64,000 nucleotides of DNA from assembly GCA_965248355.1 (NCBI GenBank), contig OZ252098.1:3360001-3424000 (forward strand), written 5' to 3'. Positions 34,067 to 52,187 of this stretch are shown here, in pieces. This DNA comes from Candidatus Latescibacterota bacterium (GTDB lineage: Bacteria; Latescibacterota; UBA2968; UBA8231). Each line of letters begins with the position of its first letter. Positions within the stretch are counted from its first letter, which is position 1. The notes under the pieces are model-generated. The model had not been told where the DNA came from, did no database searches, and was given only the letters and a program-made list of their open reading frames with translations. The translations under genes and the position numbers were made by a program.

Positions 34067-34446
34067 CGTCCCGGCCGTCACCGGGTCGGTGGGGCGGCGG
34101 GTTCTCTCATGCGAGAGCGCGGCGCAATGGACACGGTCGGACGGTCACACCAGGCACTCACCAGGGGCTGGACTTCGATGTGTAGACGTGGTCAGGCATC
34201 TTGTAGCTCACTCCCTCCTCGTCATACACCGAGATTTTCAGAAGCTGAGTGAAATTCTCTGACCGGACCACTTGTCCGGCCTTCAGAAATCTTATGGCGC
34301 GTTGCTTCATTCGGTACAAGAACAGTGTTCCCACACCGAAGTGCTTTGGAAACTCGAACTGGTCAGCGAGCCGCCCGCCTATGAGAGCTCGCGAAAGGCG
34401 GTAGGACAAAGCGGTCAGTTTTTCCTTTTCAACCGGATCTGTCACA

Positions 34447-36084
34447 GTAACCGTTCAGTCCCCTACGGGTGGGTCCACATGTTGAGAAATTGCTGTTCTG
34501 ATTTGGCCTTTGTGGGTATCTTGGGACCGGTTTCTGGCACAGAGTCCTTTAGACCCGGGCAAGGCCGTGGAGAGCCCCCCTCAGATTTCGGTGTCCGACA
34601 GCGACTGGCAGCGCACGCCGCGGGCCGTGCAGGGGCTGGTGGTCCGCTTGGGGGAGCGGGTGGCGCACCTGGAGCAGATCGTGGAGCAACAAACCGCCCG
34701 CATCGCGGCCTTGGAGCAGGAACTGGCCCGCCGCAAGGACGAGGCCGCCGCGGCGCCCAAGCCTCGGCTTCTTCGGGCTCCAGCGACCGCGCCAGCCAGC
34801 GCCGATCCTCGGGACGTTCGCCGGGAGGACAGCCGGGGCACGAAGGCCATGGCCGGTCGCTGATGCCGGCCGAGCGCGTGGATCAGTGGACCCCGGTCAA
34901 GCCCAGCGCCTGCCACCGATGCGGCCAGCGGCTGACGGGCGAGGACCCCCATCCGCGGCGTCACCAGCAGGTCGTGATCCCGCCGGTGCGAGCCCAGGTC
35001 ATCGAGTATCAGTTGCACACGCTGCGTTGTCCGGCCTGCGACCGGCTGACCGAAGCCGACTGGCCCGTGGGGGTGTCCCGGCGCACCTTCGGGCCCAGCG
35101 TGCAGGCCTGGGTCGGCCTGTTGGCCGGCGCCTACCGCTTGAGTCATCGCAACATCGTAGCCCTGTTGTCCGACGCCTTTGGCGTCGAGCTGTCGGTGGG
35201 CACGGTCAGCCCGTTGCAGCAAGAGGTGTCGGCGGCGCTGGCCGCGCCGGTGCAAGAAGCCGGCGCCTACGTTCGTCAACAAGCCCGAGTCAATGTGGAC
35301 GAGACGGGCTGGCGGCAACGCCGCGCCCGGGCCTGGTTGTGGACCGCGGTGACGGCGGGCGTCTCGGTGTTCGCCATTCGCAACAGCCGCGGCCGGGAGG
35401 TGGTCGAGGAGTTGCTCGGCGCCGACAGCCCGGCGGTGGTCGGCTCGGACCGGTACTCGGCCTACGGGCATTTGCCGCCGGCGCGCCGGCAAGTGTGCTG
35501 GGCTCACCTGCGGCGCACCTTCGAGGACTTTGTGGCCCGCGGGGGACAGGCCGCCGACATCGGCCAGCAGTTGCTGGCGTGCACCGATCAGATGTTTACC
35601 TGGTGGCATCGGGTCCGCGACGGCACCCTGCAACGCGCCAGCTTCCAGGTCTATGTCCACGCTCTGCGAGTGCGCCTTCGTCTGGCCTTGTGGTCTGGGC
35701 AGCAGTTCGCCGACGCCCGGACGGCGGCGACCTGTGGCAATCTGCTCGACCTCGAGCCGGCGCTGTGGACCTTCGCCCGCCGGCCGGGCGTGGAGCCGAC
35801 GAACAACGAGGCCGAACGAGCCCTTCGCCATGGCGTGCTGTGGCGCCACACCAGCTTCGGCAACCACAGTGCCGACGGCAGCCGCTTCGCCGAGCGCCTG
35901 CTCACGGTGCGCGACACCCTGCGCCAGCAACAGCGCAGCGTCCTCGACTATCTCATGACGGCCTGTCACGCCGCCCTCCAGCAGCAGCCGGCGCCGTCCC
36001 TGCTGCCCCAAACCAGCTCCGTCCTTCGGTAGTCCTCTCCGCACCACTCCTCCGCCTCCATCAGCTTGGAGACTGAACGGTTAC
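34447..36084 (+). mobile_element. IS66-family element, single-transposase (ISBst12-like) type (about 1.64 kb)
   Basis: TIR GTAACCGTTCAGTC at both ends; 8-bp TSD CTGTCACA at 34439-34446 and 36085-36092; no tnpA/tnpB accessory genes. Confidence 0.93.
34567..36032 (+). CDS. IS66-family transposase, one frameshift near 34737
   Basis: Coiled-coil N-terminus, GGQPGHEG, CxxC zinc finger, NVDETGW, SDRYSAY, CWAHL, TNNEAERALR; AAGGACGA needs one more G to join the frames. Confidence 0.88.
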
Positions 36085-37085
36085 CTGTCACATCCCCAAC
36101 CGCCGGAATGGCTTGGATCAGCATATTCGCCACGGCTATCGAATCGGCATCGGGCGGCGGCTCGCACATATAGCTGATCTTGTAGACTTCCTCCGCGTCC
36201 TCGGCATCGGCATAGAGGATGGTCTCGGGTATCCCCATGAGATAGCCGGTGTAGCGCCAGACATCGAGAATGCTCCTGTTTTCCTCGCTATTGAAACTCG
36301 CCCCCACCCCTGCCGAGTACTCCAGGAGGCGCTTGGAGAAGACGGAGATGGCAAACCCCAAATGCGCCGCGCTTACCGGCGTGCCCCAGGCTTCGTGATT
36401 CCAATCGTCGGATTGGGCCAGCATGCTCCTTATACGAGCATGAACAAAGCGAATGCGCACGGACAGCTTCCAGCCATCACCATTTCTTTGCAGGCCACCG
36501 GGGAAGAAAATATCCATCATGTGGCGGTTGTTCTGCTGAAGGCGCCTCCTGGTCGACGCCACCCGCCCGGTAATATTGAAAGACTTGGCGATAAGCGTGG
36601 AAAAGCCTTCCACCAGCACTCCGGTAACGAATGCGACGAGTATGAGGTTGACATTGGCATGGAATGCGCGGCGTCCTGCCTGAAAGGCCTCGTAGTCCAG
36701 CCAGGGAGGATCTTCAAGATTCTCGAAGAAATCGCGCAGAGGCTGCGGCGCTCGGCGCAGCACCTCGTCCTGCTGCTCTATGCCGGCCCTGATGAACCGG
36801 TGCAACTCACCGGGAGGCAAGGAGGAGAGCTCCTCCATAACCGGATCCAGCGCGGGATCGCCGATTGCGGTGTGCCTGACATAGTTGTCGGCCGCTGCCT
36901 GGTCGTAGAGGCGGGCCTTCTCATAGCCCTTGGTGTATGCCGAAGGCGATGATGGCATTTCCATTTCCAGCATCCTTTGAGATGTCCATGGCCAATGGAC
37001 AGTGGGGGAGATCTCGAGGGACAACCTGTAATATAGCCTCTCTTAGTCCTGAAAACCCAACCATTCGGGGCAAACGAGGGCCAAA

Positions 37086-38828
37086 CTAGGGCGGTCCCTC
37101 GACCTGCACCGTGACGATGTCCACGTCGTGGTACTTCTGGTGGCCCACGGAGGTGGCGTAGTGGCGCAGCAGGCGGAAGGAGATCTCGCGCTCGTCCGGC
37201 AGCTCGGGCTGCTCGCTCAGGTAGGCGAGCCGGTCTTCCAGGTTCGCCACGTCCGAGGCGGCCAGGAACTCCAGCTCCGCCCCCTTCTCGGCCCGGTGCG
37301 CGGTGACGATCAGTCGCCGCCCCTTGCCGTCCGTCCTGTCCTCCTCGACTTGCTGCAACAACACCGCCAGGGTCTCCTCTCCCGCGGAGCGCAGCCGTCC
37401 CTCCGCCGCCTCATTCCAGCCGATCCTCGCGGAGAAGCCCCGGAGGAAGGCATCGATCTCCGGCAACGCCCCGGCGGCCAGCTCGACCTCCAGCCGGCGG
37501 CGTCGGGGAGCTGTCAGCTCCATGAAGGCGGTCAGGGCGATCGCCGCGAGGCAGCCGGCGGTCATGCCATTGCCGAGCAAGGTGCCCCAGGTGCCGCTGC
37601 CCAGGAGATCCGCGAAGATCACCTGGTTCTGGAAGCCGACGCCGATCCAGAAGGCCAGCCCCACCACCGCGGCCTTGCGATGATCGAGTCCATCCGCGAC
37701 GACGATCTTCATTCCCTGCACGAAGAGCAGGCCGATCAGCAGGGTCACATAAGCCGCGGCCACGGGGTTGGGAATGGCGATCAGGAGGGCCGTCACCTTC
37801 GGGGACAGGGCCAGGAAGACGAAGATGAGGCCGATATACACCCCCACGCGCCTCGCGGCGACACCGGTGAGCTCGGCGAGGGATATGCTGGTGGAGTAGG
37901 TCGTGTTGGGGGGCGTCGCCATGAGCCCGGACAGCAAGTTGCCGACCCCGTCGGCGTTCAGAGCCCCCTGGACCAGACGGAAATCGGTGGCCCGCGGCTG
38001 GCGCCTCGAGACCCGTTGAATGGCCACACCGTCGCCGATGGTCTCGATGGCGCCCACGAGGGTGACCACCGCGAAGGCCGGCAGGAGCACCCAGAACTCC
38101 GCCCCCGGCGTCAGGTCCAACCCGGGCCAGCCGCCGTCCGGAAGGCCGATCCAGGGGGCTTCGAGGAAGGGCCGGATGTCATACAGTCCGAAAGCAGCGG
38201 CCACGGCACACCCTACCGCCACGGCGATGAGCGGAGCCCACAGCCGCCAGGCCACGGGAGCGCGCAGGGTCAGCACCGCCAGCACCGCCAGCGTCGTCCC
38301 GGCCGCCATCGGGGCCGCGGCCGTCGGCGTGCCCTCGGGCACCTCCTTCAGCAGGCCGAAGACGATGGGCATGACCGTCACCGCGATCAGCATGATCACC
38401 GTGCCGGAGACCACCGGTGTGATGATCCGGCGCAGCAGGGAAAGCCTCGCCGCCAGGGCGAACTGAAAGAGCGAGGAGACGACGATCAGGCTCGCCATCA
38501 GGGCCGGTCCGCCCCTTGCCAGGGCGGTGATGCAGACCGCGATGAAAGCGCCCGAGGTGCCCATGATCAGCACGTGCCCGGCCCCGATCCGCCCGACCCG
38601 GACCGCCTGGAGCACCGTGCTCACGCCACTGATCAGGAGCGCCGCGAAGGCGACCCAGGTCAGGTAGCTCGCGGGCTGGCCGGCCGCGCGGCCGATGATG
38701 ACGGCGCCGAGCACCACCGGCGCCAGGACGACCACCGCGGCCTGGAAGCCCACCCCGGCCGCTACGGAGTGGGGAGGGCGGTCCTCCGTCTCGAAGCGGA
38801 TCGATTCATTCTCCCCTGGTGTTTCCAA
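37086..38828 (-). CDS. NCS2 (xanthine/uracil permease-like) protein fused to a degenerate HATPase_c_2 (RsbW-like) C-terminal domain
   Basis: STVLQA, PVVSGTVIMLI, IETIGD, GALNADG, PNTTYS...TGVAARRVG; the roughly 140-aa tail aligns by eye with the RsbW-like protein at 47960-48409. Confidence 0.88.
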   Translation of the reverse strand: METPGENESIRFETEDRPPHSVAAGVGFQAAVVVLAPVVLGAVIIGRAAGQPASYLTWVAFAALLISGVSTVLQAVRVGRIGAGHVLIMGTSGAFIAVCITALARGGPALMASLIVVSSLFQFALAARLSLLRRIITPVVSGTVIMLIAVTVMPIVFGLLKEVPEGTPTAAAPMAAGTTLAVLAVLTLRAPVAWRLWAPLIAVAVGCAVAAAFGLYDIRPFLEAPWIGLPDGGWPGLDLTPGAEFWVLLPAFAVVTLVGAIETIGDGVAIQRVSRRQPRATDFRLVQGALNADGVGNLLSGLMATPPNTTYSTSISLAELTGVAARRVGVYIGLIFVFLALSPKVTALLIAIPNPVAAAYVTLLIGLLFVQGMKIVVADGLDHRKAAVVGLAFWIGVGFQNQVIFADLLGSGTWGTLLGNGMTAGCLAAIALTAFMELTAPRRRRLEVELAAGALPEIDAFLRGFSARIGWNEAAEGRLRSAGEETLAVLLQQVEEDRTDGKGRRLIVTAHRAEKGAELEFLAASDVANLEDRLAYLSEQPELPDEREISFRLLRHYATSVGHQKYHDVDIVTVQVEGPP

Positions 38829-38872: not shown

Positions 38873-39200
38873 TCATGGGCGCCATACCAGCAGCAGCTGG
38901 GCGACATCAACAGGTGGGGGGCTCCGAGAATCGCACGACCCAGGTCCCAGGTGAACTGCGGCTGGGCGAGGATCGACCCCTTCACCTCCCGGCCGAGCTC
39001 GTCGGTGCTGCGGCCCAGGTACTCGGCATGGCCGGCGACGGAAAGGGATTGTCCGCCGACCTCGAAGGGGCTGTTCCCGGTCTCGGGGGCGCCGCCGGCG
39101 GTGAGATCCGTGTTCAGAAGAGAAACCAGGGCAGATCCCAGGACACCCTGAGTCCGGGCAGGTACTTCACGACTCCGGCGTCCCCACCCGCGTTGCCCCC
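38873..39200 (-). pseudogene. 3' relic of a Tsx/OmpK-like nucleoside-channel outer-membrane protein
   Basis: Frame-hopping segments GNAGGDAGVVKYLPGLRVSWDLP / LNTDLTA / PFEVGGQSLSVAGHAEYLG...ILAQPQFTWDLGRAI / DVAQLLLVWRP*; family call is from recalled motifs. Confidence 0.55.
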
Positions 39201-39214
39201 GGCGGCGGCCGGGA

Positions 39215-41434
39215 TCAGGTGGCGGGCGCCCCGGAGCTGAAGCCCTTCCGGGCCAGCACGATCCTGAACTCGGTGTATTCCCCCTCTTCGGTCTCCACCT
39301 GGAACTCCCCGCCGTGCTCGCGCACGATCTCGTGGGAGATGGAGAGCCCCAGACCGGTGCCCTGAGTGCCGGACTTGGTGGTGAAGAAGGGGTCGAAGAT
39401 CTTGTCGACGATGTGGTCCGGAATGCCCGTGCCGTTGTCGCGGATGGATACGCTGACGCTGGTCTCGCTGCCCTCGGTCCTGAGCCACACGGTGGGCTCG
39501 TAGGTGCCCTCGGTCTCCTTGCCGCGCGCGATCGTGGCATGACAGGCGTTCGTCACCACGTTGAGGAAGACCCGGCTCAGATCCCGGGAGACGGCTTCCA
39601 CTTCGCCGGCGGCGTCGTCGAACTCCTTGACCAGATTGATGTTGAAGGTCGAGTCCGTTCCCCTGAGACCGTGGTAGGCGAGCTTGGCGTACTCGTCGAG
39701 CAGCAGATTCACGTCCACCGATTCCACCTGTCCCGCCTCGTTGCGGGAGTGGGCCAGCATGCCCTCGACGATGCGGTTGGCGCGCTCGCCGTGCTCCTTG
39801 ACCTTGACCACGTTGCCGCTGAGGTCGCCGAGGATCTCCTCCACCAGCTCCTCGTCCATGCCGCCCTCACCGTCCCCCTCCCCTTTCAGCTCCTCCCGCA
39901 GCTCTTCGATCAGCTCCGAGGACAGGCCGGCGAAGTTGTTCACGAAGTTGAGGGGGTTCCTGATCTCGTGGGCGATGCCGGCGGTGAGAGCGCCCAGGGA
40001 GGCCAGCTTCTCCTGGCTGATGACCTGCTGCTGGGTGCGCTTGAGGTCTTCCAGGATGGTCTCGAGCTCGGCGTTCTTGGCCTGGACCTCAGCCGCCAGC
40101 TTCTCCACCAGGTTGAGGCGCTGCACCTCCACGGCGTGCTTCCGAAAGACCTCCAGGGCCTCGGCCATGTCGGTCACCTCGTCGTTGCCGTCGATCCGCA
40201 CCTCCACCTCGAGGTCTCCCTTCGACATCCGCCGGGTGGCGTCGAAGAGTCCGGCCATCCGGACCAATAGACGCTCGCCGAAGAACCTCCAGGCGAAGTA
40301 GGCGCCCACGAGGGTGACCAGGGTGACCCCCAGCAGGAACCAGAACCCGATGCGCACCAGGTTCCGGGAGCGATTGGCCGCGTTGTGGGTGGAGACCTCG
40401 GCGTCCTTCACCAGGCCTTCCACCATGGCCACCAGATCGGCGGTCGTCTGCTGGTTGCGCGCCAGCAGGTCCTCTGAGCGGCGGACTTCCATCAGCTCGC
40501 GGGTGCGGGTCTCGAAGGCGCCGTCCGGGGCGGCGTAGAAATCGTCCAGGGTCGCCACCCGCGGCTGGAGCCGGGCCCTGATCTCGGGCCTGATCCCGGC
40601 CAGGGCCCGCCGCACGTCGCTCATGGCGGTTTCCACCCGTTCCCGGTTCGCCCGCAACAGTTCCGGATCGTTCTCCGTCATCGCCTGCTGGATGAAGGTG
40701 GTGGTGAGGTTCTGCGAAGCCTGGAAGTCGAGGAGGCCGGTGTAGTGGGCGAGCTCGGTCCTCGACGTCCGCCGGCCCGCGGGGACCGGAACATCGTCGA
40801 GGCCGCGGAGCCCGGTGTGCATGAAGAAGTGCTGATCGTCGACCAGCTCCTCCAGCAGGAGCTGCAGCTCGAGGCCGAGGCTCTCCACCTGACCTTCCAG
40901 CTCCCTGAGGCGGGACCGGTACTCCATCCTGCGGGCTACCGACTCCTGGATCTGGTTGATGCTCTCCACCAGGCTGTCGGCCAGCGGCACGACCGCGCTC
41001 CCGACGCCCCCCTCCACACCTCCCTTGGATTCGGCCCGCATCACCTCCACGAGCCACCGGCGAAGCGTCTCCTCCTCCCGGACCACGTCCCGGCCCACCT
41101 CCTTCAGGTCCGCGGGATCGTCGGCGGCCAGGAGCCGCGGCGAGGCCCGCACCAGCTCGGAGCTGCTGCGGGCCACCTCGAAGGCGGCCACCAGGGCCGG
41201 CATGTGGCCTTCGGTGACCTCGCTCTGCCGGGAGCTCACGATGCTCATCAGCAACAGGGCCAGGACCACGGCGCCGATGGTCATGGTCACCCCGACGCCC
41301 AGCCCCACCGCGATCTGGCTGCCGATGCCGAAACGCCCTCCCGTGGCCTGGCGGATCCGCTCGCCGAGACGGCCGGGGAACCGTTCCAGGAACAACTCGA
41401 AGGCGGAGTGGATTCGCTGGTCCGTCGTCTTCAT
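39215..41434 (-). CDS. Sensor histidine kinase (large helical TorS-like periplasmic domain, HAMP, HisKA, HATPase)
   Basis: EKLASLGALTAGIAHEIRNP, NVVTNA, DNGTGIP, FDPFFTTK, GTGLGL; ATGA coupling to the binding-protein gene. Confidence 0.93.
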   Translation of the reverse strand: MKTTDQRIHSAFELFLERFPGRLGERIRQATGGRFGIGSQIAVGLGVGVTMTIGAVVLALLLMSIVSSRQSEVTEGHMPALVAAFEVARSSSELVRASPRLLAADDPADLKEVGRDVVREEETLRRWLVEVMRAESKGGVEGGVGSAVVPLADSLVESINQIQESVARRMEYRSRLRELEGQVESLGLELQLLLEELVDDQHFFMHTGLRGLDDVPVPAGRRTSRTELAHYTGLLDFQASQNLTTTFIQQAMTENDPELLRANRERVETAMSDVRRALAGIRPEIRARLQPRVATLDDFYAAPDGAFETRTRELMEVRRSEDLLARNQQTTADLVAMVEGLVKDAEVSTHNAANRSRNLVRIGFWFLLGVTLVTLVGAYFAWRFFGERLLVRMAGLFDATRRMSKGDLEVEVRIDGNDEVTDMAEALEVFRKHAVEVQRLNLVEKLAAEVQAKNAELETILEDLKRTQQQVISQEKLASLGALTAGIAHEIRNPLNFVNNFAGLSSELIEELREELKGEGDGEGGMDEELVEEILGDLSGNVVKVKEHGERANRIVEGMLAHSRNEAGQVESVDVNLLLDEYAKLAYHGLRGTDSTFNINLVKEFDDAAGEVEAVSRDLSRVFLNVVTNACHATIARGKETEGTYEPTVWLRTEGSETSVSVSIRDNGTGIPDHIVDKIFDPFFTTKSGTQGTGLGLSISHEIVREHGGEFQVETEEGEYTEFRIVLARKGFSSGAPAT

Positions 41435-42621
41435 CGCGAGAGCCGTGTCACCGGGGCGAATCGGCCTTTGCGGATCATGGTCAGGAAGACCCGGTCGGAC
41501 CCCTGGTTGTCTCCAGGTCCGTACTCGACCAGGAACCCGCCCAGGTCGATGGGGCCCGCCTCCTCCAGGGTGCGGAGGAAGGCCTCGCGAGTGGGCGCGG
41601 CCGGTCCGCCGCCATCGCCGGAGGCAGCGGCGGCGCTCAGGGCATCGACCACGAGACGGCCGGCCAGGTAGCCCTCGAGGGAGACGAAGCCTGGTTGGGC
41701 TGTTTCGTCGACCGCCTCCAGGGCGGCGTGATAGCGAACCACGACCGGGATCCGGCTGTCGCGCGGGAAGGGCACCACCTGGGTCACCACCACTCCGTCG
41801 CCGTGGGGGCCCAGCTCCTCCAGGAGGGCGTTGCTGCCGACGAAGGATATGTTCACGAAGACGGCGACCATGCCGATCTTGCGGGCCCACTTGATGAAGT
41901 GGGCCGCCGGCCGGTAGGCGCCGATGATGATCACCGCCTCCGGGTCACTGTCCAGGAGGCCGAGAAGGGCCCGCTTCACGGCCACGGTGTTGCGCATGTA
42001 CGTGACCTCGCCCACCAGCTCCATGCCGCGCCGCTCGAGGGCCCGGCGAACCCCCGTCAGGCCGGCCATCCCGTAGCTGTCGTCCTGGTAGAGGATGGCG
42101 ATGCGCCGGATTCCCAGGTCACCGGTGAGCCGCTCCACCATCTCCTCCGTCTCCTGGAAGTACGAGGCGCGCACGTTCACCACGTAGCGCTGGTCGTCTC
42201 CCCGGAGCAGCTCGGCGCCGGTGAAGGGTCCGATGTAGGGAACCGACGCGCCGCTGGCGATCGGCTCGGCGGCGTTGGAGGTGGGCGTGCCCACGGCCCC
42301 GATGAGGCCGAAGACGCCATGGGCGATGAGCTCCCTGGTGTTGGTTACCGCGGCCTCGGGCTCGTAGCCGTCGTCCCGTACCAGGAGCCGGAGCCGGCGG
42401 CCGTGGATGCCGCCGGACCGGTTGGCCTCCTCGAAGGCGGCGCGGATCCCCAGGTTCATGTTGCGGCCCAGCTCGGCGGCCGGACCGCTCAGCGCCGCCG
42501 ACTGACCGAAGAGGATGGAGTCGGGATACACCCCGTCGCCGCCCCCCCGCATCCCCTGGCCGGCCGCGCCGGCGGGGACGAGCCCGAGCGCCGCGGCGGC
42601 GAGGAGGGCCAGGCGGGTCAT
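41431..42621 (-). CDS. Periplasmic ligand-binding protein (LivJ-like), paralog of 24082-25426
   Basis: Signal peptide; GQSAALSGP, DDGYEP, GAVGTPT, NVRASYFQE, NISFVGS, SLEGYLAG; alternative start 42633. Confidence 0.9.
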   Translation of the reverse strand: MTRLALLAAAALGLVPAGAAGQGMRGGGDGVYPDSILFGQSAALSGPAAELGRNMNLGIRAAFEEANRSGGIHGRRLRLLVRDDGYEPEAAVTNTRELIAHGVFGLIGAVGTPTSNAAEPIASGASVPYIGPFTGAELLRGDDQRYVVNVRASYFQETEEMVERLTGDLGIRRIAILYQDDSYGMAGLTGVRRALERRGMELVGEVTYMRNTVAVKRALLGLLDSDPEAVIIIGAYRPAAHFIKWARKIGMVAVFVNISFVGSNALLEELGPHGDGVVVTQVVPFPRDSRIPVVVRYHAALEAVDETAQPGFVSLEGYLAGRLVVDALSAAAASGDGGGPAAPTREAFLRTLEEAGPIDLGGFLVEYGPGDNQGSDRVFLTMIRKGRFAPVTRLSR

Positions 42622-42622
42622 C

Positions 42623-43783
42623 TCAGGAGGCATCTCCCAGGTAGCGCAGGGTCATGCAGGTGATGTCGTCGGACTGGGGGGCCTCGCCGGCATGGGCATG
42701 CACGGCCTCCACCACGCGGCGGCTGAAGTCGGCGGCGCTCGATCCGGCGGCCTCGGCCAGGACCCCGGTCAGCCTCTCGTCGCCGAACTCGACGCCGTTC
42801 GTGTCCATCGCCTCGTTGACGCCGTCGGTGTAGTAGAACAGCACGTCTCCCGGCTCCAGATCGAGGGTCCCCTCGGGGAACTCGAAGTCGGGCAACACCC
42901 CGAGGACCAGCCCCGGCGCGCAGTCGATCTGCCGCACCTCGCCGGACGGCTTGACCACGAACGGCAGGTTGTGGCCGGCGTTGGCGAACTCGAGGTGCCC
43001 CGTCATCGGATCGAGGTTCGTGTAGAACACGGTGACGAACATCGCCTCCTCGTTCGACTCCGCGAGCAGCTCGTTGACCTCTTTGAGGCACTTCGCCGGG
43101 TTGCTCTCGCCGATGGCGGTCCCCTTCATCAGGGTCCGGCTCACCATCATGAAGAGGGCGGCCGGCACTCCCTTCCCGGAGACGTCCGCCACCACGAGCC
43201 CCATGCGCTCGTCGGCGAGCCGGAAGAAGTCGTAGAAGTCGCCGCCGATCTCGCGGGCCGGGGTCATGGAGGCGTGAAGCTCGTACCTGGGGTTCTGGGG
43301 AAAGTCGGTGGGAAGGATGGACTCCTGCATCTGCGCCGCCACCCCGAGCTCCTGGCGCAAAGCCACCAGTTCGTCCCGGGACCGCAGCGCCTCACGCATC
43401 ACCAGAAGATGCTCGAGGGTCTTGTCGATCGTCGCCTCGAGATCGTCGAAGTCGATGGGCTTCGTCACGAAGTCGAAGGCGCCCCGGTTCATGGCGGTGC
43501 GGATGTTCTTCATGTCCCCGTACGCGGTGACCATCACCGCCCGCAGGTCGTACTCCAGATTGCCGAGCTGCTGCAGAAGGGTGAGCCCGTCCATCTCGGG
43601 CATGTTGATGTCCGACAGCACCAGGTCGACGTCGTCGTGTTCCTCGAGCTGCCTCAGGGCCTCGACCCCGTTCTGGGCGAAGATGAGGATGAGCTGTCCG
43701 GACCGGGTCTTGCGCCGGAACTTCTGCCGGAGCAGCAGTTCCAGATCCGGCTCGTCGTCCACGACAAGGATCTTCGGTACCAT
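42623..43783 (-). CDS. Response-regulator receiver + SpoIIE/PP2C phosphatase (RsbU-like)
   Basis: ILVVDDE, LSDINMP, FVTKP; EIGGDFYD, ADVSGKG, ANAGH, YTDGVNEA, QSDDIT. Confidence 0.95.
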   Translation of the reverse strand: MVPKILVVDDEPDLELLLRQKFRRKTRSGQLILIFAQNGVEALRQLEEHDDVDLVLSDINMPEMDGLTLLQQLGNLEYDLRAVMVTAYGDMKNIRTAMNRGAFDFVTKPIDFDDLEATIDKTLEHLLVMREALRSRDELVALRQELGVAAQMQESILPTDFPQNPRYELHASMTPAREIGGDFYDFFRLADERMGLVVADVSGKGVPAALFMMVSRTLMKGTAIGESNPAKCLKEVNELLAESNEEAMFVTVFYTNLDPMTGHLEFANAGHNLPFVVKPSGEVRQIDCAPGLVLGVLPDFEFPEGTLDLEPGDVLFYYTDGVNEAMDTNGVEFGDERLTGVLAEAAGSSAADFSRRVVEAVHAHAGEAPQSDDITCMTLRYLGDAS

Positions 43784-43958
43784 CGTCGCTCCAGGGTTGG
43801 ACATCTCGGTCGGCGATCTAAGGTACGCAAGACGATGATTGTAGCGCACGGCCTTTCTGAGCCGCAAGTGTACCCTCCCACGGGGCCCGCCTGGTTCTCT
43901 TTCACATTTTCCTGGGTATGATTTCCAGGATCGGCGGACGTCCAACGAGGAGGCAACG

Positions 43959-44291
43959 GTGACCCGGCCAGATGGCGGATTGAATCCTTCCGGAGCCCCC
44001 CGTCGGTCCGCGCAGCCGATTGCGATCATGGGCATGGCCTGCCGGTTCCCGGCGGAGGATCTCCCGGCCTTCTGGCGTCTGCTCGAAGCCGGCGGGAACG
44101 CGGTCACCGAGGTCCATCCGGGCTCAGGTGTCGGGAGAGCGGGCGAGTTGTTCCCGGACCCCGAGGCGCAGAACAAGGCCTGCCTCCTCGCCGGAGGGGT
44201 CCACTCGAAGAGAACGCGCCGGCATGAGTCCCGGTGTCCTCGGCTTGCCACCAGGGGCCGGCTGGCGAACACCCGGAGGACGGTTCCCTAA
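43959..44291 (+). pseudogene. N-terminal relic of a type I PKS ketosynthase (SupA-like)
   Basis: GAGGAGG RBS + [16 protein letters not shown]...[15 protein letters not shown]...[13 protein letters not shown]...AC, then jumps to LLAGGVH; no catalytic DTACSS motif. Confidence 0.8.
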
Positions 44292-44510
44292 CGCGTCACT
44301 CGCACCGTAACGACATCCAGTCCAGGAACTCCATCTCCACGGACCCTCCCTCGGGCTGGTCACCTCCAGGAAGGCCGTAAGGGCAATCGCCGTCGCCGTG
44401 CCAGGGGCCGACCAGCACGTCCTCGAAGATGTTGTGGTGCTTCATGCCGAGGCCGATGGAGAACGCCACTCCCGCCACGATGGCCTTCTGCAGATCGAGG
44501 CAAGCCATGA
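44288..44510 (-). pseudogene. Collapsed 3' relic of a second NCS2/RsbW-like fusion gene
   Basis: Segments LDLQKAIVAGVAFSIGLG, TAIALTAFLEVTSPR, EGGSVEMEFL and LDVVTVRVTR* match, in order, LDHRKAAVVGLAFWIGVG, AAIALTAFMELTAPR, EKGAELEFL and VDIVTVQV of 37086-38828. Confidence 0.85.
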
Positions 44511-44570
44511 GGATGCCCGTTGGCGTAGATCGACCCTGGAAGCGTCAGCCCCTTTCGAGGCGGATTCGGC

Positions 44571-45827
44571 TCAGGGCGCGAAGCGGTAGACCACCGGCAG
44601 CTTCGCGGTGTCCGTGACACCCGTGTCGGTGTGGTGGTAGATGTTCACCCTCCCCGTGCCGCAGTCCCCGAACTCGTCGCAGGAGAGAGCCCCGATGAGG
44701 CCTTGGAAGCCCTCCGTCGCCCCCAGTTCCTCGCGCAGGACGGCGCGGTCCACGCTCAGGGTCCCGGCGTCTTCCTCCGCGGCGGACTCGACGGCGCTGA
44801 GCAGCACCGTCGTGGCGTCGTAGGCGTGGGCCCAGTAGGGGGACGTGGGGGAGCCGCCGTACGTGGATTCATAGGCGGCAAGGACCTCCTCTGCGCTCTT
44901 TCCCGTGGCCCCATTGACGTTGGAGCCGAGGTCCGTCTCGGGCCCCGCGAAGTAGATGCCCTCCGATTGCGGCGTCCCCAGGAACTCCGACACGAGCAGG
45001 GCCGCGCCCGTGATGAGCGTCACCCCTTCCAGGCCGTCGAAGGACCGCGCCTGCTCGGCGAAGGGCGTGCCTTCGCCCTCGAAGAGCGGGAAGAAGAGGC
45101 CATCGGGCCCGGATTCCGCGAATTCCACCAGGACGGAGGTCATGTCCGTGGCGCCCTTCTCGATCGTGGAGATGGCCGGGACCTCACCCCCGATCTCGCG
45201 GAAGGCCGCGGCAAACGCGCTCACCAGGGCCGTGGTGTACGGGTCGCCGTCGTCGACGGCCGCCATGCGCCGCAGGCCCAGCTCGTTGTAGGCGAAGTCG
45301 GCCACCGCCCGCCCCTGGTAGAGGTCGTTGTTGGAGACGCGGAAGTAGCCGGGGTGGTAGTCGCGACTGGCGGTGCCGGCCAGGTCGGAGGTGAGCAGCG
45401 GCGAGGTGTTGCTCGGCGAGACCATCACCCGCCCCGCCTCGCTGAGCACCGGCGACGCGGCCACGGCCGCCGCCGAGCAGGAGGTGCCGATGACGCCCAG
45501 CACCTGGGCTTCGGCGGCGATCTGCTCGGCGCCGGTGCGGCCGCCCTCCGGCGTGCACATGGCGTCCAGGGATTCGCCGAGGTCGACGGCGTGACCCTGG
45601 ATGCTGCCGTAATCCCGCACGGCCAGCTCGCAGCCGTGGCGCAACGCCCCGCCAAGGGACGCTGCGCCGGTGATGGAAAGGAGCGACCGGATCTGCACCG
45701 CCTGGCCGGCGCCGATCTCCACGGCGCCGAGGGGTCCCGCCTTGCTGCCTGCCGGTTCATCCTCGCCGCATCCCGTCACCAGGACTAGGAGGAAGGGAAG
45801 CTGGACGCTTCTGATGGCCCTGGACAT
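44571..45827 (-). CDS. Branched-chain amino-acid-type ABC substrate-binding lipoprotein (no cognate permease nearby)
   Basis: Lipobox VTGC; GTSCS, SPSNTSPLLT, YFRVSNND, AHAYDA, CDEFGDCG. Confidence 0.9.
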   Translation of the reverse strand: MSRAIRSVQLPFLLVLVTGCGEDEPAGSKAGPLGAVEIGAGQAVQIRSLLSITGAASLGGALRHGCELAVRDYGSIQGHAVDLGESLDAMCTPEGGRTGAEQIAAEAQVLGVIGTSCSAAAVAASPVLSEAGRVMVSPSNTSPLLTSDLAGTASRDYHPGYFRVSNNDLYQGRAVADFAYNELGLRRMAAVDDGDPYTTALVSAFAAAFREIGGEVPAISTIEKGATDMTSVLVEFAESGPDGLFFPLFEGEGTPFAEQARSFDGLEGVTLITGAALLVSEFLGTPQSEGIYFAGPETDLGSNVNGATGKSAEEVLAAYESTYGGSPTSPYWAHAYDATTVLLSAVESAAEEDAGTLSVDRAVLREELGATEGFQGLIGALSCDEFGDCGTGRVNIYHHTDTGVTDTAKLPVVYRFAP

Positions 45828-45879
45828 GATCGTTCACCTCCTCGGGCTGCGGGCGCCCTGTGGACGCCACAGCCCAGGG

Positions 45880-46056
45880 TCAAGGGGTGGTCCGTAGCCG
45901 CCTCGTCTGCCGACCGAAGGTCTCGATGACCTCCAGTGTCTCGCGCACGTCGTCCCAGGTCAGCGAGAAAGTCCCCCGGAGCAACGTGGACGACACAAAG
46001 GCGCGGAAGGAGCGGCTCAACTGAAGGCCGCGGTCCGAGAGGTTGGGGTGGTTCGT
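45880..46056 (-). pseudogene. Collapsed 3' relic of a PLP-dependent (group II, aromatic-amino-acid-type) decarboxylase
   Basis: NHPNLSDRGLQLSRSFRA joined to FVSSTLLRGTFSL joined to TWDDVRETLEVIETFG; these motifs are normally far apart. Confidence 0.7.
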
Positions 46057-46105
46057 AGGCTTCGAAGTTCATGCTTGGGGCCGGGCGGTGAATCACATAT
46101 CGGCT

Positions 46106-47483
46106 TCAGTCCGGGTCGCGGTAGTCTCCCCCCTGGTCGGGGTCAACCATGAGGGCGAACTCGGGGTAGGCGTCGATTCCCAGCTCGCCCGCGTCCTGCC
46201 CGATCTCCTCGACGTCGCGCGAGACCCTGAGGCCCAGGGCCCGGCTCAGACCCAACCACACCAGGAGGGAGGCGAAAAAGACAAAGGCGCCCACGCTCAG
46301 CACTCCGATGAGCTGCACCAGGAAGTTGCCCCCCCCCGGCGATGCAGACCGCCAGCGTGCCCCAGACCCCGGCGAAGAGATGGGCGGGGACCGCCCCGAC
46401 CACGTCATCGATCCGCATGCGCTCCAGCAGTTTCAATCCGGCCGTGCACAGGGCCGCGCCCACGGCGCCGATGACGATCGCCCACCTGGCATCGAGGATG
46501 TCCGGTCCCGCCGTGATCGCCACCAGGCCGGCGATGGCGCCGTTGAGGGCGGCGAAGAGATCGGTGCGGCCCAGGATGGGCCGGGACACGAAGATCGCCG
46601 TGACCACGCCCGCGGCGGCGGCGAGGTTGGTGTTGACGAGGATGTTGCTCATGGCCACCGCGTCGGCCACGCCGGAGAGGGCCAGCTGGGAGCCGCCGTT
46701 GAAGCCGAACCAGCCCAGCCAGAGGATGAAGACGCCGAGAGTGACCGCGGGGATGTTGGAGGGAGGCGTGATCTTCACCGAGCCGTCCTTGCGGAACTTG
46801 CCCCACCGCGGGCCCACGACGATGGCGCCGGCCAGGGCCGCCCAGCCCCCGGTCGAGTGGACGATGGTGGAGCCCGCGAAGTCCTGGAAGCCCATCTCCG
46901 AAAGCCATCCCCCGCCCCAGGTCCAGGCCCCGACGATGGGGTAGATGATCCCCGTCAGGACCGCGGTGAAGGCGAAGAACGCCCAGAGCTTGACCCGCTC
47001 CGCCAGCACCCCCGAGACGATCGAGGCGGTAGTGGCCACGAAAACCATCTGGAAGAACCAAAAAGACATGGTGGAGTAGTTGTTGGCCACCACCCCGGCC
47101 AAGGCCCCCTCGTCTCCGTCCAGGAGGGCGATCTCTCCGTCGGACAGGCCGTAGAAAAGGTCGAGAGAGCCGATCAGGGCCCCCACGTCGACGTACATCA
47201 GGCTGTAGCCCAGGATGTAGTAGGTGAGCCCGGCGATGGCGTACAGGCCGATGTTCTTGAGGCAGATCATGGAGGCGTTCTTGGACCGCACCGAGCCGGA
47301 CTCCAGCATGGTGAACCCGGCGCACATCCACATCACCAGGGCGCCCCAGACCAGGAACGAGAATGTGTTGAGGACGAAGCCGGTCTGCTCCTCCGTGGCC
47401 GCGGCCGGTGACGGCGCCAGCAGAATCCCGACGGCGAAGAGGCCGGCGGCGGCCATGGCGGATCGGTGTTGGCGCAGGTTCAT
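46106..47483 (-). CDS. amtB: Ammonium transporter; +1 frameshift in a G9 run (46329-46337)
   Basis: FFQMVF, DFAGSTIVH, WLGWFGFNGGS, IDDVVGAVPAH (twin His kept); a G8 run would continue GNFLVQLIG...GLRVSRDVEEIGQD. Confidence 0.93.
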
Positions 47484-47627
47484 CGGGTGTGCTCCTCAAG
47501 CAGGTTTCGTGTTCCCATTCCGGGGTTGAGATGCAGTACGCCCGATCGGCGGCCCCAGGACGGGGTGCTGCGCCGGCGGACATCCCGCGGCGGCGAGAAG
47601 GCCGGTCCGGTGCACGCCATGGGAGTC

Positions 47628-47963
47628 TTATCCGAAACTGTCGCGGGCCTCCTCGACCGTGTCGAAGACCTTCGCCAGGCGCGAGAAGCCGCTGATCTCC
47701 AGCACCTCCAGGATGTGGTCGGGCACCCGGCACAGGGCCAGCCCCCCGCCGGCGGCGCTCGTCTTCCTGATGGCGATCAGGAAGACCCGCAGCCCCGCAC
47801 TGCTGATGTAGTTGAGCTCGCCGCAATCGACCACGAGTCCGGTGGACCCCTTGTCGATAATGGCGCTCAGCTCTTCTTCGAATTCCTTGGCGTTCGCGGA
47901 ATCCACGCGGCCGCTGACTGCGGCGACGGCCGTGGTTCCGGTGTGACTGGTCTCAACGTTCAT
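47628..47963 (-). CDS. STAS-domain anti-sigma factor antagonist (RsbV/SpoIIAA-like)
   Basis: SGRVDS, NYISSAGLR (phosphorylatable Ser), LEISGF; ATGA coupling. Confidence 0.93.
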   Translation of the reverse strand: MNVETSHTGTTAVAAVSGRVDSANAKEFEEELSAIIDKGSTGLVVDCGELNYISSAGLRVFLIAIRKTSAAGGGLALCRVPDHILEVLEISGFSRLAKVFDTVEEARDSFG

Positions 47964-48409
47964 GCATCGTCCTCCGGAGTCTCCAAGGGCTGCACGAGGT
48001 TCAGGCGATTGCACCCGTCCACCCGCTCATACGTGAGCTTGTGAACGAATGCCTTGGTGAGATGGATGCCGAGGCCACCGATGGGACGGCCCGAGGCAGG
48101 AAGGTCCACATCGGGGTCGGCGGCGTCCTCGAGCGGGTTGAATGGTTTTCCATTGTCCTGAATGACGGCCTCCACTTCGGTGTCGCTGAGGTGGAGGGTC
48201 ACGGTGATGATCGGATCCCGCGTGTCCTCCTCGAACCCGTAGGAAATCACGTTCGTCAGTATCTCGTCCAGCGCCAGCTGGAACCCGAATATCGTCCTCT
48301 CCGGAAGCCCGTTCTCGGCTCCGAAACGTTCGAACTGCTCCGCGATTCGCCTTGGCTCCTCGCTGTCGAGCCCGACGTCAAACTTCAGATTGACATCCAT
48401 TTTGGTCAT
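47960..48409 (-). CDS. Anti-sigma regulatory Ser/Thr kinase (RsbW-like, HATPase_c_2)
   Basis: LALDEILTNVISYG, QDNGKPFNP, GGLGIHL. Confidence 0.93.
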   Translation of the reverse strand: MTKMDVNLKFDVGLDSEEPRRIAEQFERFGAENGLPERTIFGFQLALDEILTNVISYGFEEDTRDPIITVTLHLSDTEVEAVIQDNGKPFNPLEDAADPDVDLPASGRPIGGLGIHLTKAFVHKLTYERVDGCNRLNLVQPLETPEDDA

Positions 48410-48587: not shown

Positions 48588-49441
48588 GAACCTATCTCAA
48601 AATCACTACACATAACCTTGAGTTCTGATTGCTGATGATGTACCATTACTGTATGGTTACTCTGACCGACCAGCAATGGGAACGGATCCGTCATCACTTT
48701 CCTGAGGAGCATCGCCCCGGGAGCCATCCGGGTCGTAAACCGATTGCCACCCGTGACGTTCTTGAAGCTGTGCTTTGGATTCTCAATACCGGGGCTCAAT
48801 GGCATATGTTGCCGCAGTGCTATCCGAACTACAAAACCGTGCATCGCCGTTTTCAAAATTGGTGTCGTCAAGGGGTGTTACGCGAAGTTCTCGTGGACCT
48901 GGCCCAGACTCTTCACGAGCAAGGGGACTTGGACGAATCGGAAGCTTTCATTGATGGCATGTTCTCGGCGGCCAAGGGTGGAGGTGCCGATATCGGCCAC
49001 ACCAAGCGAGGCAAGGGCGTACGAGTCATGGGGATCGTGGACCGCCATGGGCTTCCCTTGTCGGTGAGCACGCATGCAGCGAACCATCATGAAGTGACGC
49101 TGGTTCAGTTGACGTTTGACTTCTACCTGATCGAAGACAAACCCAAGAACTTGATTGGAGACAAAGCCTACGACAGCGACCCGTTAGATGAGGAGCTGAA
49201 GAAAGAAGGGGTCGAGATGATCGCTCCCCATCGCCAGAACCGAACCAAGAAAAAGACTCAGGACGGACGCCGATTGCGTCGCTATGTGCGGCGTTGGATG
49301 GTGGAGAGATTCTTCGCTTGGCTTCAATGGCAGCGTCGAGTGATCACTCGCTGGGAATTGTATCCGGAGAATTTTCTTGGCTTCGTCCAACTTGCCTCCA
49401 TCCTGATTTTACTTAAGCAATTTCAATTTTGAGATAGGTTC
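48588..49441 (+). mobile_element. IS5-family insertion sequence (854 bp)
   Basis: Perfect 16-bp TIR GAACCTATCTCAAAAT (48588-48603, 49426-49441) flanked by TT on both sides; AT-richer than host sequence. Confidence 0.92.
48653..49432 (+). CDS. IS5-family transposase (single ORF)
   Basis: LTDQQWERI, TGAQWHMLP, FIDGMF, GDKAYDS, RWMVERFFAWL. Confidence 0.93.
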   Translation: MVTLTDQQWERIRHHFPEEHRPGSHPGRKPIATRDVLEAVLWILNTGAQWHMLPQCYPNYKTVHRRFQNWCRQGVLREVLVDLAQTLHEQGDLDESEAFIDGMFSAAKGGGADIGHTKRGKGVRVMGIVDRHGLPLSVSTHAANHHEVTLVQLTFDFYLIEDKPKNLIGDKAYDSDPLDEELKKEGVEMIAPHRQNRTKKKTQDGRRLRRYVRRWMVERFFAWLQWQRRVITRWELYPENFLGFVQLASILILLKQFQF

Positions 49442-52139: not shown

Positions 52140-52187
52140 CGCATTTTCTTCCCCGAACCAACATTCCCCGGACGGAGGACCACTCCG

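Follow-up and report, generated by a model that had tools for sequence, protein, structure and literature searches.

We analyzed a minus-strand gene at 37086..38828 of a 64,000-nucleotide stretch of a Candidatus Latescibacterota bacterium genome (contig OZ252098.1, positions 3,360,001 to 3,424,000; hereafter the window), which encodes a permease of the nucleobase-cation symporter 2 (NCS2) type extended by a C-terminal tail. Structure modeling and profile comparison support an RsbW-type fold for this tail, and comparative genomics supports a link between the tailed permease and partner switching, suggesting that a partner-switching module may control a transporter directly. We give close to an even chance to the reading that the tail would be a noncatalytic receiver for the STAS protein of the module, gating transport. 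An original prediction made from the window alone had proposed a permease with a rewired substrate site fused to a dead RsbW-like kinase domain, forming a candidate transceptor.

An RsbW-type fold is predicted for the permease tail

The tail comprises residues 437 to 580 plus the stop codon (37086..37520, minus strand), and the strings RLEVEL, IDAFLRGF, RLRSAGEETLAVL, LIVTAH, ELEFL, ISFRLLRHYATSV, and DIVTV attributed to it were present in the translation. The window tail gave no Pfam match even at E ≤ 1, with HATPase_c_2 (PF13581) not reaching its cutoff, and BLASTP of the tail against the RsbW-like protein of the window (47960-48409) produced nothing significant (best E, 3.3). A tail profile searched against PDB sequences found nothing at E ≤ 10, and phmmer found nothing in the PDB for the window RsbW itself. 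Among 31 tails from related loci (alignment A1), HATPase_c_2 was the commonest weak Pfam match, occurring in 6 of 31 with a best E of 6.1e-4, and the tail of the copy in locus L069 matched this family at E 3.9e-4.

Comparing alignment A1 with an alignment of 34 homologs of the window RsbW (A3) by hhalign gave a probability of 76.8% and an E of 2.1e-5 over 123 collinear columns. An AlphaFold2 model of the tail built on A1 had a predicted local distance difference test score (pLDDT) of 77.2, a predicted template modeling score of 0.74, and the topology beta-alpha-alpha-beta-beta-alpha-(disordered 104-113)-alpha-beta-beta. The first strand and helix (beta1 and alpha1) were modeled at pLDDT 92-95 directly after transmembrane helix 14 (TM14), and the lid region, which is variable in sequence, fell below 50. 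The best Foldseek match of this model was 8ih8_D (E 6.7e-7; probability, 1.00), consistent with a Bergerat-type topology, and among the matches listed, all 19 at E ≤ 0.001 were chains of RsbW, SpoIIAB, or UsfX. VIA returned Z scores of 15.0 for UsfX, 14.6 for the RsbW domain of Rv1364c, 14.3 for RsbW, and 14.0 for SpoIIAB, with 103-120 aligned residues and root mean square deviations of 2.1-3.0 in the top matches; lower scores were obtained for SiaB (11.4), LvrC (10.4), and ordinary histidine-kinase ATP domains (at most 7.2). These results support the predicted RsbW-type Bergerat fold of the tail. The likeness of about 140 residues to RsbW claimed in the original prediction is real at the profile and fold level, though it is invisible to BLASTP.

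Loss of ATP-binding motifs and retention of an acidic pair

Mapping the tails onto RsbW with hhalign placed Ser, Val, or Thr at the position of the N-box Asn (RsbW N53), with Asn in only 2 of the 31 tails. The G1 motif, D85-x-G87, faces A/S/C/T-x-S/A, leaving DxG in 0/31 tails, and the G2 motif GGLG is reduced by deletion to an invariant Ser, with GxG present in a single tail (1/31), where it is located in the lid loop. The earlier assertion that the tail lacks the N-box Asn, DxG, and GxG was accurate for the window tail and for almost every other tail aligned. These comparisons support the tail as a putative kinase-dead RsbW domain that would have lost canonical ATP binding.

Other positions were held without exception across the 31 tails, including E48-E49, F85, N93, D96, S114, and R116 and a C-terminal motif, H-x-K-Y-H-D-x-D. 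In the hhalign mapping, E49 of the tails aligned with E49 of the window RsbW subfamily, which A3 places at position 45 of the 141-residue RsbW chain in 6m36. Provided that this chain represents the 5-145 construct of PMC7340262, position 45 would correspond to Glu49 of Bacillus subtilis RsbW, with a presumed offset of +4. According to that paper, RsbW Glu49 contacts the acceptor Ser56 of RsbV. This probable mapping of the invariant tail Glu pair onto the RsbW-RsbV contact is new here.

Relative to RsbW, SpoIIAB, and UsfX, the tail shares fold and topology throughout the domain and has a collinear profile match and the acidic pair of the N-box helix, but it lacks the N-box Asn, G1, and G2, is fused to a membrane carrier instead of being free-standing, and has its own invariant C-terminal motif. 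Rv1364c of Mycobacterium tuberculosis, a fused RsbU-RsbW-RsbV protein (PDB 3ke6), provides a precedent for an RsbW-type domain within a larger protein and was among the strongest VIA matches as noted above. Unlike the tailed permease, Rv1364c is soluble, all of its parts belong to the switch, and it contains no transporter.

A conserved but noncanonical substrate site in the carrier core

The permease open reading frame (ORF) encodes 580 amino acids from a TTG start, and we consider the gene intact because homologs of the same length (575-589 amino acids) exist with up to 98% identity. The core comprises residues 1-436 (37521..38828, minus strand). Within it, Xan_ur_permease (PF00860) spans residues 26-399 (E 7.3e-46; 157.1 bits against a cutoff of 27), and the core matched UapA chains at E 2e-14 and UraA at E 1e-12. 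Scores were below the NCBIfam cutoffs for both the pbuX xanthine permease (TIGR03173; 196.9 versus 414.15 bits) and the ncs2 superfamily (TIGR00801; 175.8 versus 291.8 bits).

Members of the NCS2 or nucleobase-ascorbate transporter (NAT) family (PF00860, TC 2.A.40) carry a NAT signature in TM10, [Q/E/P]-N-x-G-x-x-x-x-T-[R/K/G]. In the window permease, this signature is replaced by NTTYSTSISLAELTG, with TSISLAELTG standing opposite UapA QNNGVIALTR so that only the Thr and the final Gly are retained. The TM1 His of UapA faces Ala (QA), and the acidic residues of TM8 are kept, with ETIGD aligned to UapA ECIGD. All three features quoted in the original prediction (PNTTYSTSIS, TM1 QA, and TM8 ETIGD) were found in the translation.

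We next evaluated conservation in 43 sequences, consisting of the window permease and 42 of the 51 ORFs of its cluster, with nine ORFs outside 540-640 amino acids left out. Q29 (43/43), A30 (34/43), E262 (39/43), and D266 (43/43) were conserved in the core, as were S314 (42/43), S316 (33/43), E319 (39/43), and T321 and G322 (both 43/43) within the replacement motif. Because the replacement motif is itself conserved in the family, the substrate site of the permease is changed rather than decayed, as the earlier claim of a rewired site had anticipated. Compared with characterized NCS2/NAT carriers (UapA, UraA, XanQ, and SVCT1), the tailed family matches significantly over the whole core and keeps the TM8 Glu and Asp, but it has S/T-S-I-S for Q-N-x-G, a new conserved E319, and Ala for the TM1 His, and it adds a 144-residue cytoplasmic domain. 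Canonical recognition of xanthine, uracil, or urate by the core is unlikely. Against the four nearest relatives, ratios of nonsynonymous to synonymous substitution rates were 0.13-0.18 in the core and 0.30-0.46 in the tail, with saturation in more distant pairs. Purifying selection on the core, together with the retained TM8 Glu and Asp, fits an active carrier and a sensor equally well.

RNA-library contigs from two studies covered 37145-37468, 37859-38262, and 38371-38564, among other segments, at 90-97% likeness. We did not count them as expression, since transcription cannot be demonstrated from contigs and RNA libraries may contain DNA. The nearest ESM Atlas clusters scored 0.90-0.94, some with HATPase_c_2 or Xan_ur_permease, which we treat as a lead only.

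The tail co-occurs with one RsbW subfamily

A STAS protein with an acceptor Ser, an intact RsbW, and a PP2C phosphatase occur together on the minus strand of the window at 42623-48409, forming a partner-switching module. To relate such modules to the tail, we searched 151 sampled genomes of the phylum of the window, calling the RsbW subfamily represented by A3 at E ≤ 1e-20; the window member of this subfamily is encoded 10.4 kb upstream of the permease. The tail was found in 60/151 genomes and 9/46 genera, and the A3 subfamily was found in 73/151 genomes. Tail-bearing genomes were concentrated in three families (22/63, 19/30, and 18/19), and none of the 38 genomes from the other eleven families had the tail. 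The A3 subfamily was present in 59/60 tail-bearing genomes and in 14/91 tail-less genomes; the lone tail-bearing exception, G183, is 94% complete and in 320 contigs. Within the genus of the window, four genomes had both and five (76-96% complete) had neither.

We observed the same pattern in a class of another phylum (that around genome G017), in which 18 of 121 genomes had the tail. The A3 subfamily occurred in 18/18 tail-bearing genomes versus 3/103 tail-less genomes of this class. Because the generic HATPase_c_2 family (PF13581; E ≤ 1e-8) was detected in 34/103 of the same tail-less genomes, the tail appears to track the A3 subfamily and not partner switching generally. The A3 subfamily was also present in 41/43 tail-bearing genomes of other phyla. 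These two co-occurrence tabulations with their generic-family control are new here, as is the resolution of the relic described below. Together, these comparisons of genomes support a probable link of the permease to partner switching, upholding the connection that the original prediction had drawn.

A tail copy lay within 15 kb of an RsbW gene in 12/59 genomes of the phylum of the window and in 4/18 genomes of the other class. Tailed permeases have modules of STAS, receiver-PP2C (REC-PP2C), RsbW, binding-protein, and kinase genes as neighbors in at least five genera of the phylum of the window, as well as in four other-class genomes. In L066, the genes for a SulP-STAS carrier, GPP34, STAS, REC-PP2C, and RsbW are followed by a convergent tailed permease 86 nucleotides (nt) away and then by an ORF, STAS, RsbW, a binding protein, a TorS-type kinase, another ORF, and an ammonium transporter (Amt). 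L067 has the same first half, with an adjacent SulP ORF that gave no STAS match. The order in L068 is tailed permease, sulfatase, and a Glycos_transf_3 gene, divergent from genes for a Na:Ala symporter, STAS, an ORF, REC-PP2C, RsbW, a binding protein, and a kinase. In L069, which belongs to the other phylum, MMPL, MpaB, STAS, REC-PP2C, and RsbW precede the tailed permease, with Alpha-E, Amt, and CP-ATP-grasp genes between them on the opposite strand. L070 contains the tailed permease and an ORF, with kinase, binding-protein, RsbW, and REC-PP2C genes on the opposite strand. No sigma-factor family was detected among the Pfam matches of ORFs in L066-L070.

A proposed receiver model and its alternatives

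Considering the predicted fold of the tail, its conserved residues, and the company it keeps, we infer that the STAS protein binds the tail, that this binding gates transport, and that control runs from the module to the permease. In such a model, the gene product would be a working NCS2-fold secondary carrier with a noncanonical substrate, and its C-terminal domain would be a kinase-dead RsbW descendant that serves, at the membrane, as receiver for a partner-switching module dedicated to it. Signal sensing would fall to a TorS-like histidine kinase and a periplasmic binding protein, which would control the REC-PP2C phosphatase; this enzyme and the soluble RsbW kinase would together set the phosphorylation state of the single STAS protein. 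Unphosphorylated STAS would then dock on the tail, which may retain the Glu pair lining the STAS-serine contact in RsbW yet would be unable to phosphorylate STAS, and docking would turn transport on or off.

SulP/SLC26 carriers share the 7+7 inverted-repeat fold class of NCS2 carriers and end in a cytoplasmic STAS domain. They are the nearest analogy to the tailed permease, in that a carrier is joined to a cytoplasmic domain borrowed from partner switching. The two arrangements are complementary and not homologous, with SulP carrying the antagonist half (STAS) and the tailed family carrying the kinase half (a putative pseudo-RsbW). SulP-STAS genes are found in the same genome as the window and, as in L066, next to the module. 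Partner switches driven by REC-PP2C proteins include RsbK-RsbY-RsbV-RsbW of Bacillus cereus, RssB/RssC of Pseudomonas, and SiaABC. One of their components, SiaB, is among the fold matches of the tail, but no sigma factor or other known output is encoded near the window module, and a tailed permease is the recurrent neighbor.

A record-level search of the literature found no description of an NCS2 permease with an RsbW-like tail. A plausible if still doubtful claim is that this architecture represents an undescribed output of partner switching, in which a transporter-fused dead RsbW would receive STAS and gate solute uptake posttranslationally with no release of a sigma factor, as the mirror of SLC26/SulP-STAS, and would have spread with its cognate module over at least five phyla of uncultured bacteria. 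Bacteria that lack a matching sigma factor commonly have partner-switching modules, and the targets of these modules are a long-standing gap. If the claim is true, a transporter bearing the module's own binding domain would provide a concrete, testable output. It would also make sense of the puzzle of STAS-ended SulP/SLC26 carriers by placing the complementary half on a sister fold.

Several observations weigh against the receiver model. We surveyed neighborhoods in 50 loci obtained by a pattern scan of species genomes, in which 447 ORF calls formed 218 clusters; 130 of the ORFs were scanned with Pfam (77 representatives and 53 adjacent singletons), with 87 singletons left out. No neighbor was common to all lineages. 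When purpose-built hidden Markov models (HMMs) were run over all six-frame pieces of flanks of at most 10 kb on each side, STAS was found near the permease copy most similar to that of the window in 2/50 loci, RsbW in 0/50, and PP2C in 6/50, leaving 42/50 loci without any partner-switching gene. The two STAS genes (L017 and L022) are directly downstream and convergent, the L017 copy being 33% identical to the window STAS, and all six PP2C loci fall in the clade of the window permease. A reading of no link that we drew from these 50 loci was revised, since genome-wide searches showed that another paralog is often beside the module. The expectation that homologs would have partner-switching neighbors failed for most of the closest copies and held for the genera and other-class genomes described above. 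Even so, 61 of the 77 genomes that contain both the tail and RsbW genes have them on separate contigs or at a long distance from each other. Furthermore, related genomes are nonindependent samples, so that Fisher P values overstate the association. A shared mobile island or habitat is the main confounder and could explain much of the co-occurrence; MpaB, MMPL, Amt, GPP34, and the CP-ATP-grasp/Alpha-E/transglutaminase set recur in module neighborhoods of two phyla (L064, L065, and L066-L069). The soluble RsbW could still control a sigma factor encoded elsewhere. Finally, the alpha1 Arg R21, nearly invariant in the A3 subfamily, faces a variable position in the tail.

Both NCS2 and SLC26 carriers function as dimers, which is in keeping with an explanation that we consider unlikely but worth serious attention: the tail may be a built-in cytoplasmic domain that only dimerizes or stabilizes the carrier, comparable to STAS in SulP/SLC26 carriers and lacking any outside partner, and may track the module only through a shared island or regulon. 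According to PMC7340262, RsbW dimerizes through beta1 and alpha1, the two elements kept in the tail directly after TM14. The many loci without flanking partner-switching genes, the island-like gene set repeated across phyla, and the shallow separation of phyla, with Actinomycetota sequences within those of Chloroflexota, likewise favor a purely structural role of the tail. Such a role gives no reason for the invariance of E48/E49, N93, D96, S114, and R116 around the former nucleotide and STAS-contact site, and it does not explain why the tail is tracked by the A3 RsbW subfamily but not by HATPase_c_2 generally. Those invariant residues, along with E95, cluster on elements of the GHKL ATP pocket in the hhalign mapping, and they could also point to a degenerate pocket that binds a small molecule, for instance a metabolite of the transported compound, for allosteric feedback without a protein partner. 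We regard this as highly improbable, with the pocket-shaping G1 and G2 loops deleted or replaced, the lid poorly modeled and variable in sequence, and the co-occurrence with the module left unexplained.

The transceptor proposed in the original prediction would reverse the direction of control: substrate occupancy would alter the tail, which would sequester or release STAS or heterodimerize with RsbW, making the carrier a sensor. It draws on the same structural and co-occurrence evidence as the receiver model, and the rewired NAT motif and the multiple tail-bearing copies in some genomes (up to eight tail-profile matches, or four tandem copies in L013) would suit it. The module already has its own input, however, in the binding protein and histidine kinase that lead to REC-PP2C, and because of this the permease is the more natural output. 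In addition, the family strongly conserves both the replacement motif and the acidic residues of TM8, as for an active site working on a real substrate, and no module target besides transporters is visible. On balance, we find a transceptor improbable.

Distribution of the fusion

Searching with the tail alone retained 1775 of 4771 candidate proteins at E ≤ 0.001, and all of the 120 tail-matching proteins listed carry PF00860. After clustering at 50% identity, there were 705 matching clusters at E ≤ 0.001, 486 at 1e-10, and 114 at 1e-30, and the full-length members among the 150 clusters listed were 553-597 amino acids long with the tail at the C-terminal end. The fusion is clearly not a one-off, as had been supposed from a relic in the window. 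Candidate stand-alone tails were rejected: 5/8 short representatives that we fetched begin with TM14 residues and are likely gene fragments, and no free-standing form of the tail was identified among the short cluster representatives.

Record titles of the 50 loci include Latescibacterota, Gemmatimonadota, Dehalococcoidia, Caldilineaceae, Acidimicrobiia, Spongiisociaceae, and Acidobacteria; some members of the uncultured phyla bear sponge-related names or labels. In a quick tree of 43 rows, phyla were mostly clades (5 label changes against a minimum of 4) with shallow separation, and the Actinomycetota permeases formed one clade with short branches inside the Chloroflexota sequences, which hints at possible old transfers of the tailed permease between phyla. 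We also observed four tandem tailed-permease copies in L013 (L013:4888-12420, Dehalococcoidia) and two copies each in L018 and L047, and G292 had the most tail-profile matches of any genome, with 8. A large unannotated family of this kind (705 clusters and up to 8 matches per genome) leaves a gap when metabolism is interpreted in uncultured symbionts.

The gene cluster around the permease

The permease belongs to a cluster of minus-strand genes that begins at 48409 and ends at 35966, in the order RsbW-like kinase, STAS, Amt, Peripla_BP_6, relic of a second permease, REC-PP2C, Peripla_BP_6, HAMP histidine kinase, Tsx-like remnant, tailed permease, and MpaB-like gene. The canonical RsbW-like serine kinase (47960..48409; HATPase_c_2 E 2.2e-20) has intact N-box, G1, and G2 motifs, with D48, E49, N53, D85xG87, and G111 G112 L113 G114 invariant in its homologs, and the genome has no other strong HATPase_c_2 match. 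No second single-domain STAS protein was found in the genome besides the 111-residue one encoded here (47628..47963; PF01740 E 1.8e-19); S54 and S55 of this protein do not vary among 33 homologs, and its phosphorylatable acceptor Ser aligned with that of SpoIIAA. The STAS ATG overlaps the RsbW stop codon as ATGA (47960-47963), an arrangement typical of translational coupling. The window permease tail is the only match to the tail profile in the genome. No Sigma70_r2 match was found in the window; the genome has 20, the nearest more than 228 kb away.

The REC-PP2C gene (42623..44272) encodes a response regulator receiver (Response_reg E 6.1e-26) and a SpoIIE phosphatase (E 8.1e-55). Its ORF is overlong, with the receiver beginning at residue 168, the real start near 43800, and orthologs of 386-396 amino acids. 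A Peripla_BP_6 binding protein (41431..42633; E 8.5e-57) is paired with a sensor histidine kinase containing HAMP, HisKA, and HATPase_c domains (39215..41890), which is 78-84% identical to those in L001-L007. The true start of the kinase is probably later, since the listed ORF overlaps the upstream gene. This pairing of binding protein and kinase is repeated in L066, L068, and L070, and the L067 sequence ends after the binding protein. A second Peripla_BP_6 protein (44571..45827, identified with Pfam) is encoded farther upstream, and in relatives it directly precedes an intact paralog of the permease, as in L064. The Amt gene (46143..47483; Pfam E 2.7e-92) also occurs beside the module in L064, L066, and L069.

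Between the kinase and the permease, tblastn with the intact 257-residue gene of L001 revealed a frameshifted remnant of a Tsx-like outer-membrane channel (38876..39173) in three pieces and three frames, with the first ~119 residues gone. The gene is intact (257-290 amino acids) at this position in L001, L006, and L007, and the Channel_Tsx match in L006 (E 6.7e-5) was below the Pfam cutoff. A nucleoside-type channel next to the carrier hints at the substrate class of the carrier. An MpaB/Lcp-like gene of an oxygenase family (35966..37024; PF09995 E 1.1e-14) starts 61 nt downstream of the permease stop codon; relatives of it were found in 7/50 loci, immediately after the permease in four (L002-L005), and beside the module in L069. 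The cluster is flanked by plus-strand transposase genes of insertion sequence (IS) families IS66 (34272-36032) and IS4/IS5 (48629-49432), which together with the two internal pseudogenes suggest recent rearrangement. Beyond the upstream IS element is a 1256-residue ORF with a TonB-dependent receptor Plug domain (49475-53245, plus strand).

Relic of a second tailed permease

The relic that the original prediction had described as a paralog carrying the same tail proved to be a mosaic remnant of a second tailed NCS2 permease (44288..44540, minus strand) when analyzed with a family HMM and tblastn of intact paralogs. It retains TM13, TM14 with the linker, and only two short pieces of the tail, in three frames, so that its identity as a second tailed paralog was confirmed and the presence of a whole tail was not. 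Over 1311 six-frame pieces, the family HMM matched TM13 at 44299-44544 (E 1.6e-6; profile positions 377-410) and the frameshifted TM14 and linker weakly (E 0.62), with no match to a tail body.

L064 and L065 each retain an intact second tailed permease after the corresponding binding-protein gene, and the L064 paralog is 54% identical to the window permease in the core and 61% identical in the tail. By L064 numbering, the relic pieces at 44505-44401 and 44402-44349 correspond to residues 422-456 (77% identical) and 467-484, and the tail pieces at 44358-44323 and 44344-44294 correspond to a beta-strand piece and the last strand. Using tblastn, the L064 and L065 paralogs were 77% and 74% identical to the relic over 35 amino acids, with a summed E of ~1e-14 for the first two pieces and E values of 0.003-0.14 for the tail pieces; the relic DNA was 86% identical over 101 nt.

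A short stretch of 92 nt (44019-44110, minus strand) matched a type I polyketide synthase (PKS) gene at 79% over a 95-column alignment. In relatives, a type I PKS (L064:12738-19991; KS-AT-DH-MT-ER-KR-ACP) lies with a phosphopantetheinyl transferase (PPTase) and a hydrolase between two permease operons. By comparison with these relatives, the window has lost most of the second paralog plus the hydrolase, PPTase, and PKS block. Because of this loss, the RsbW-STAS end is now 10.4 kb from the surviving permease, and the corresponding distance is 20-35 kb in five relatives.

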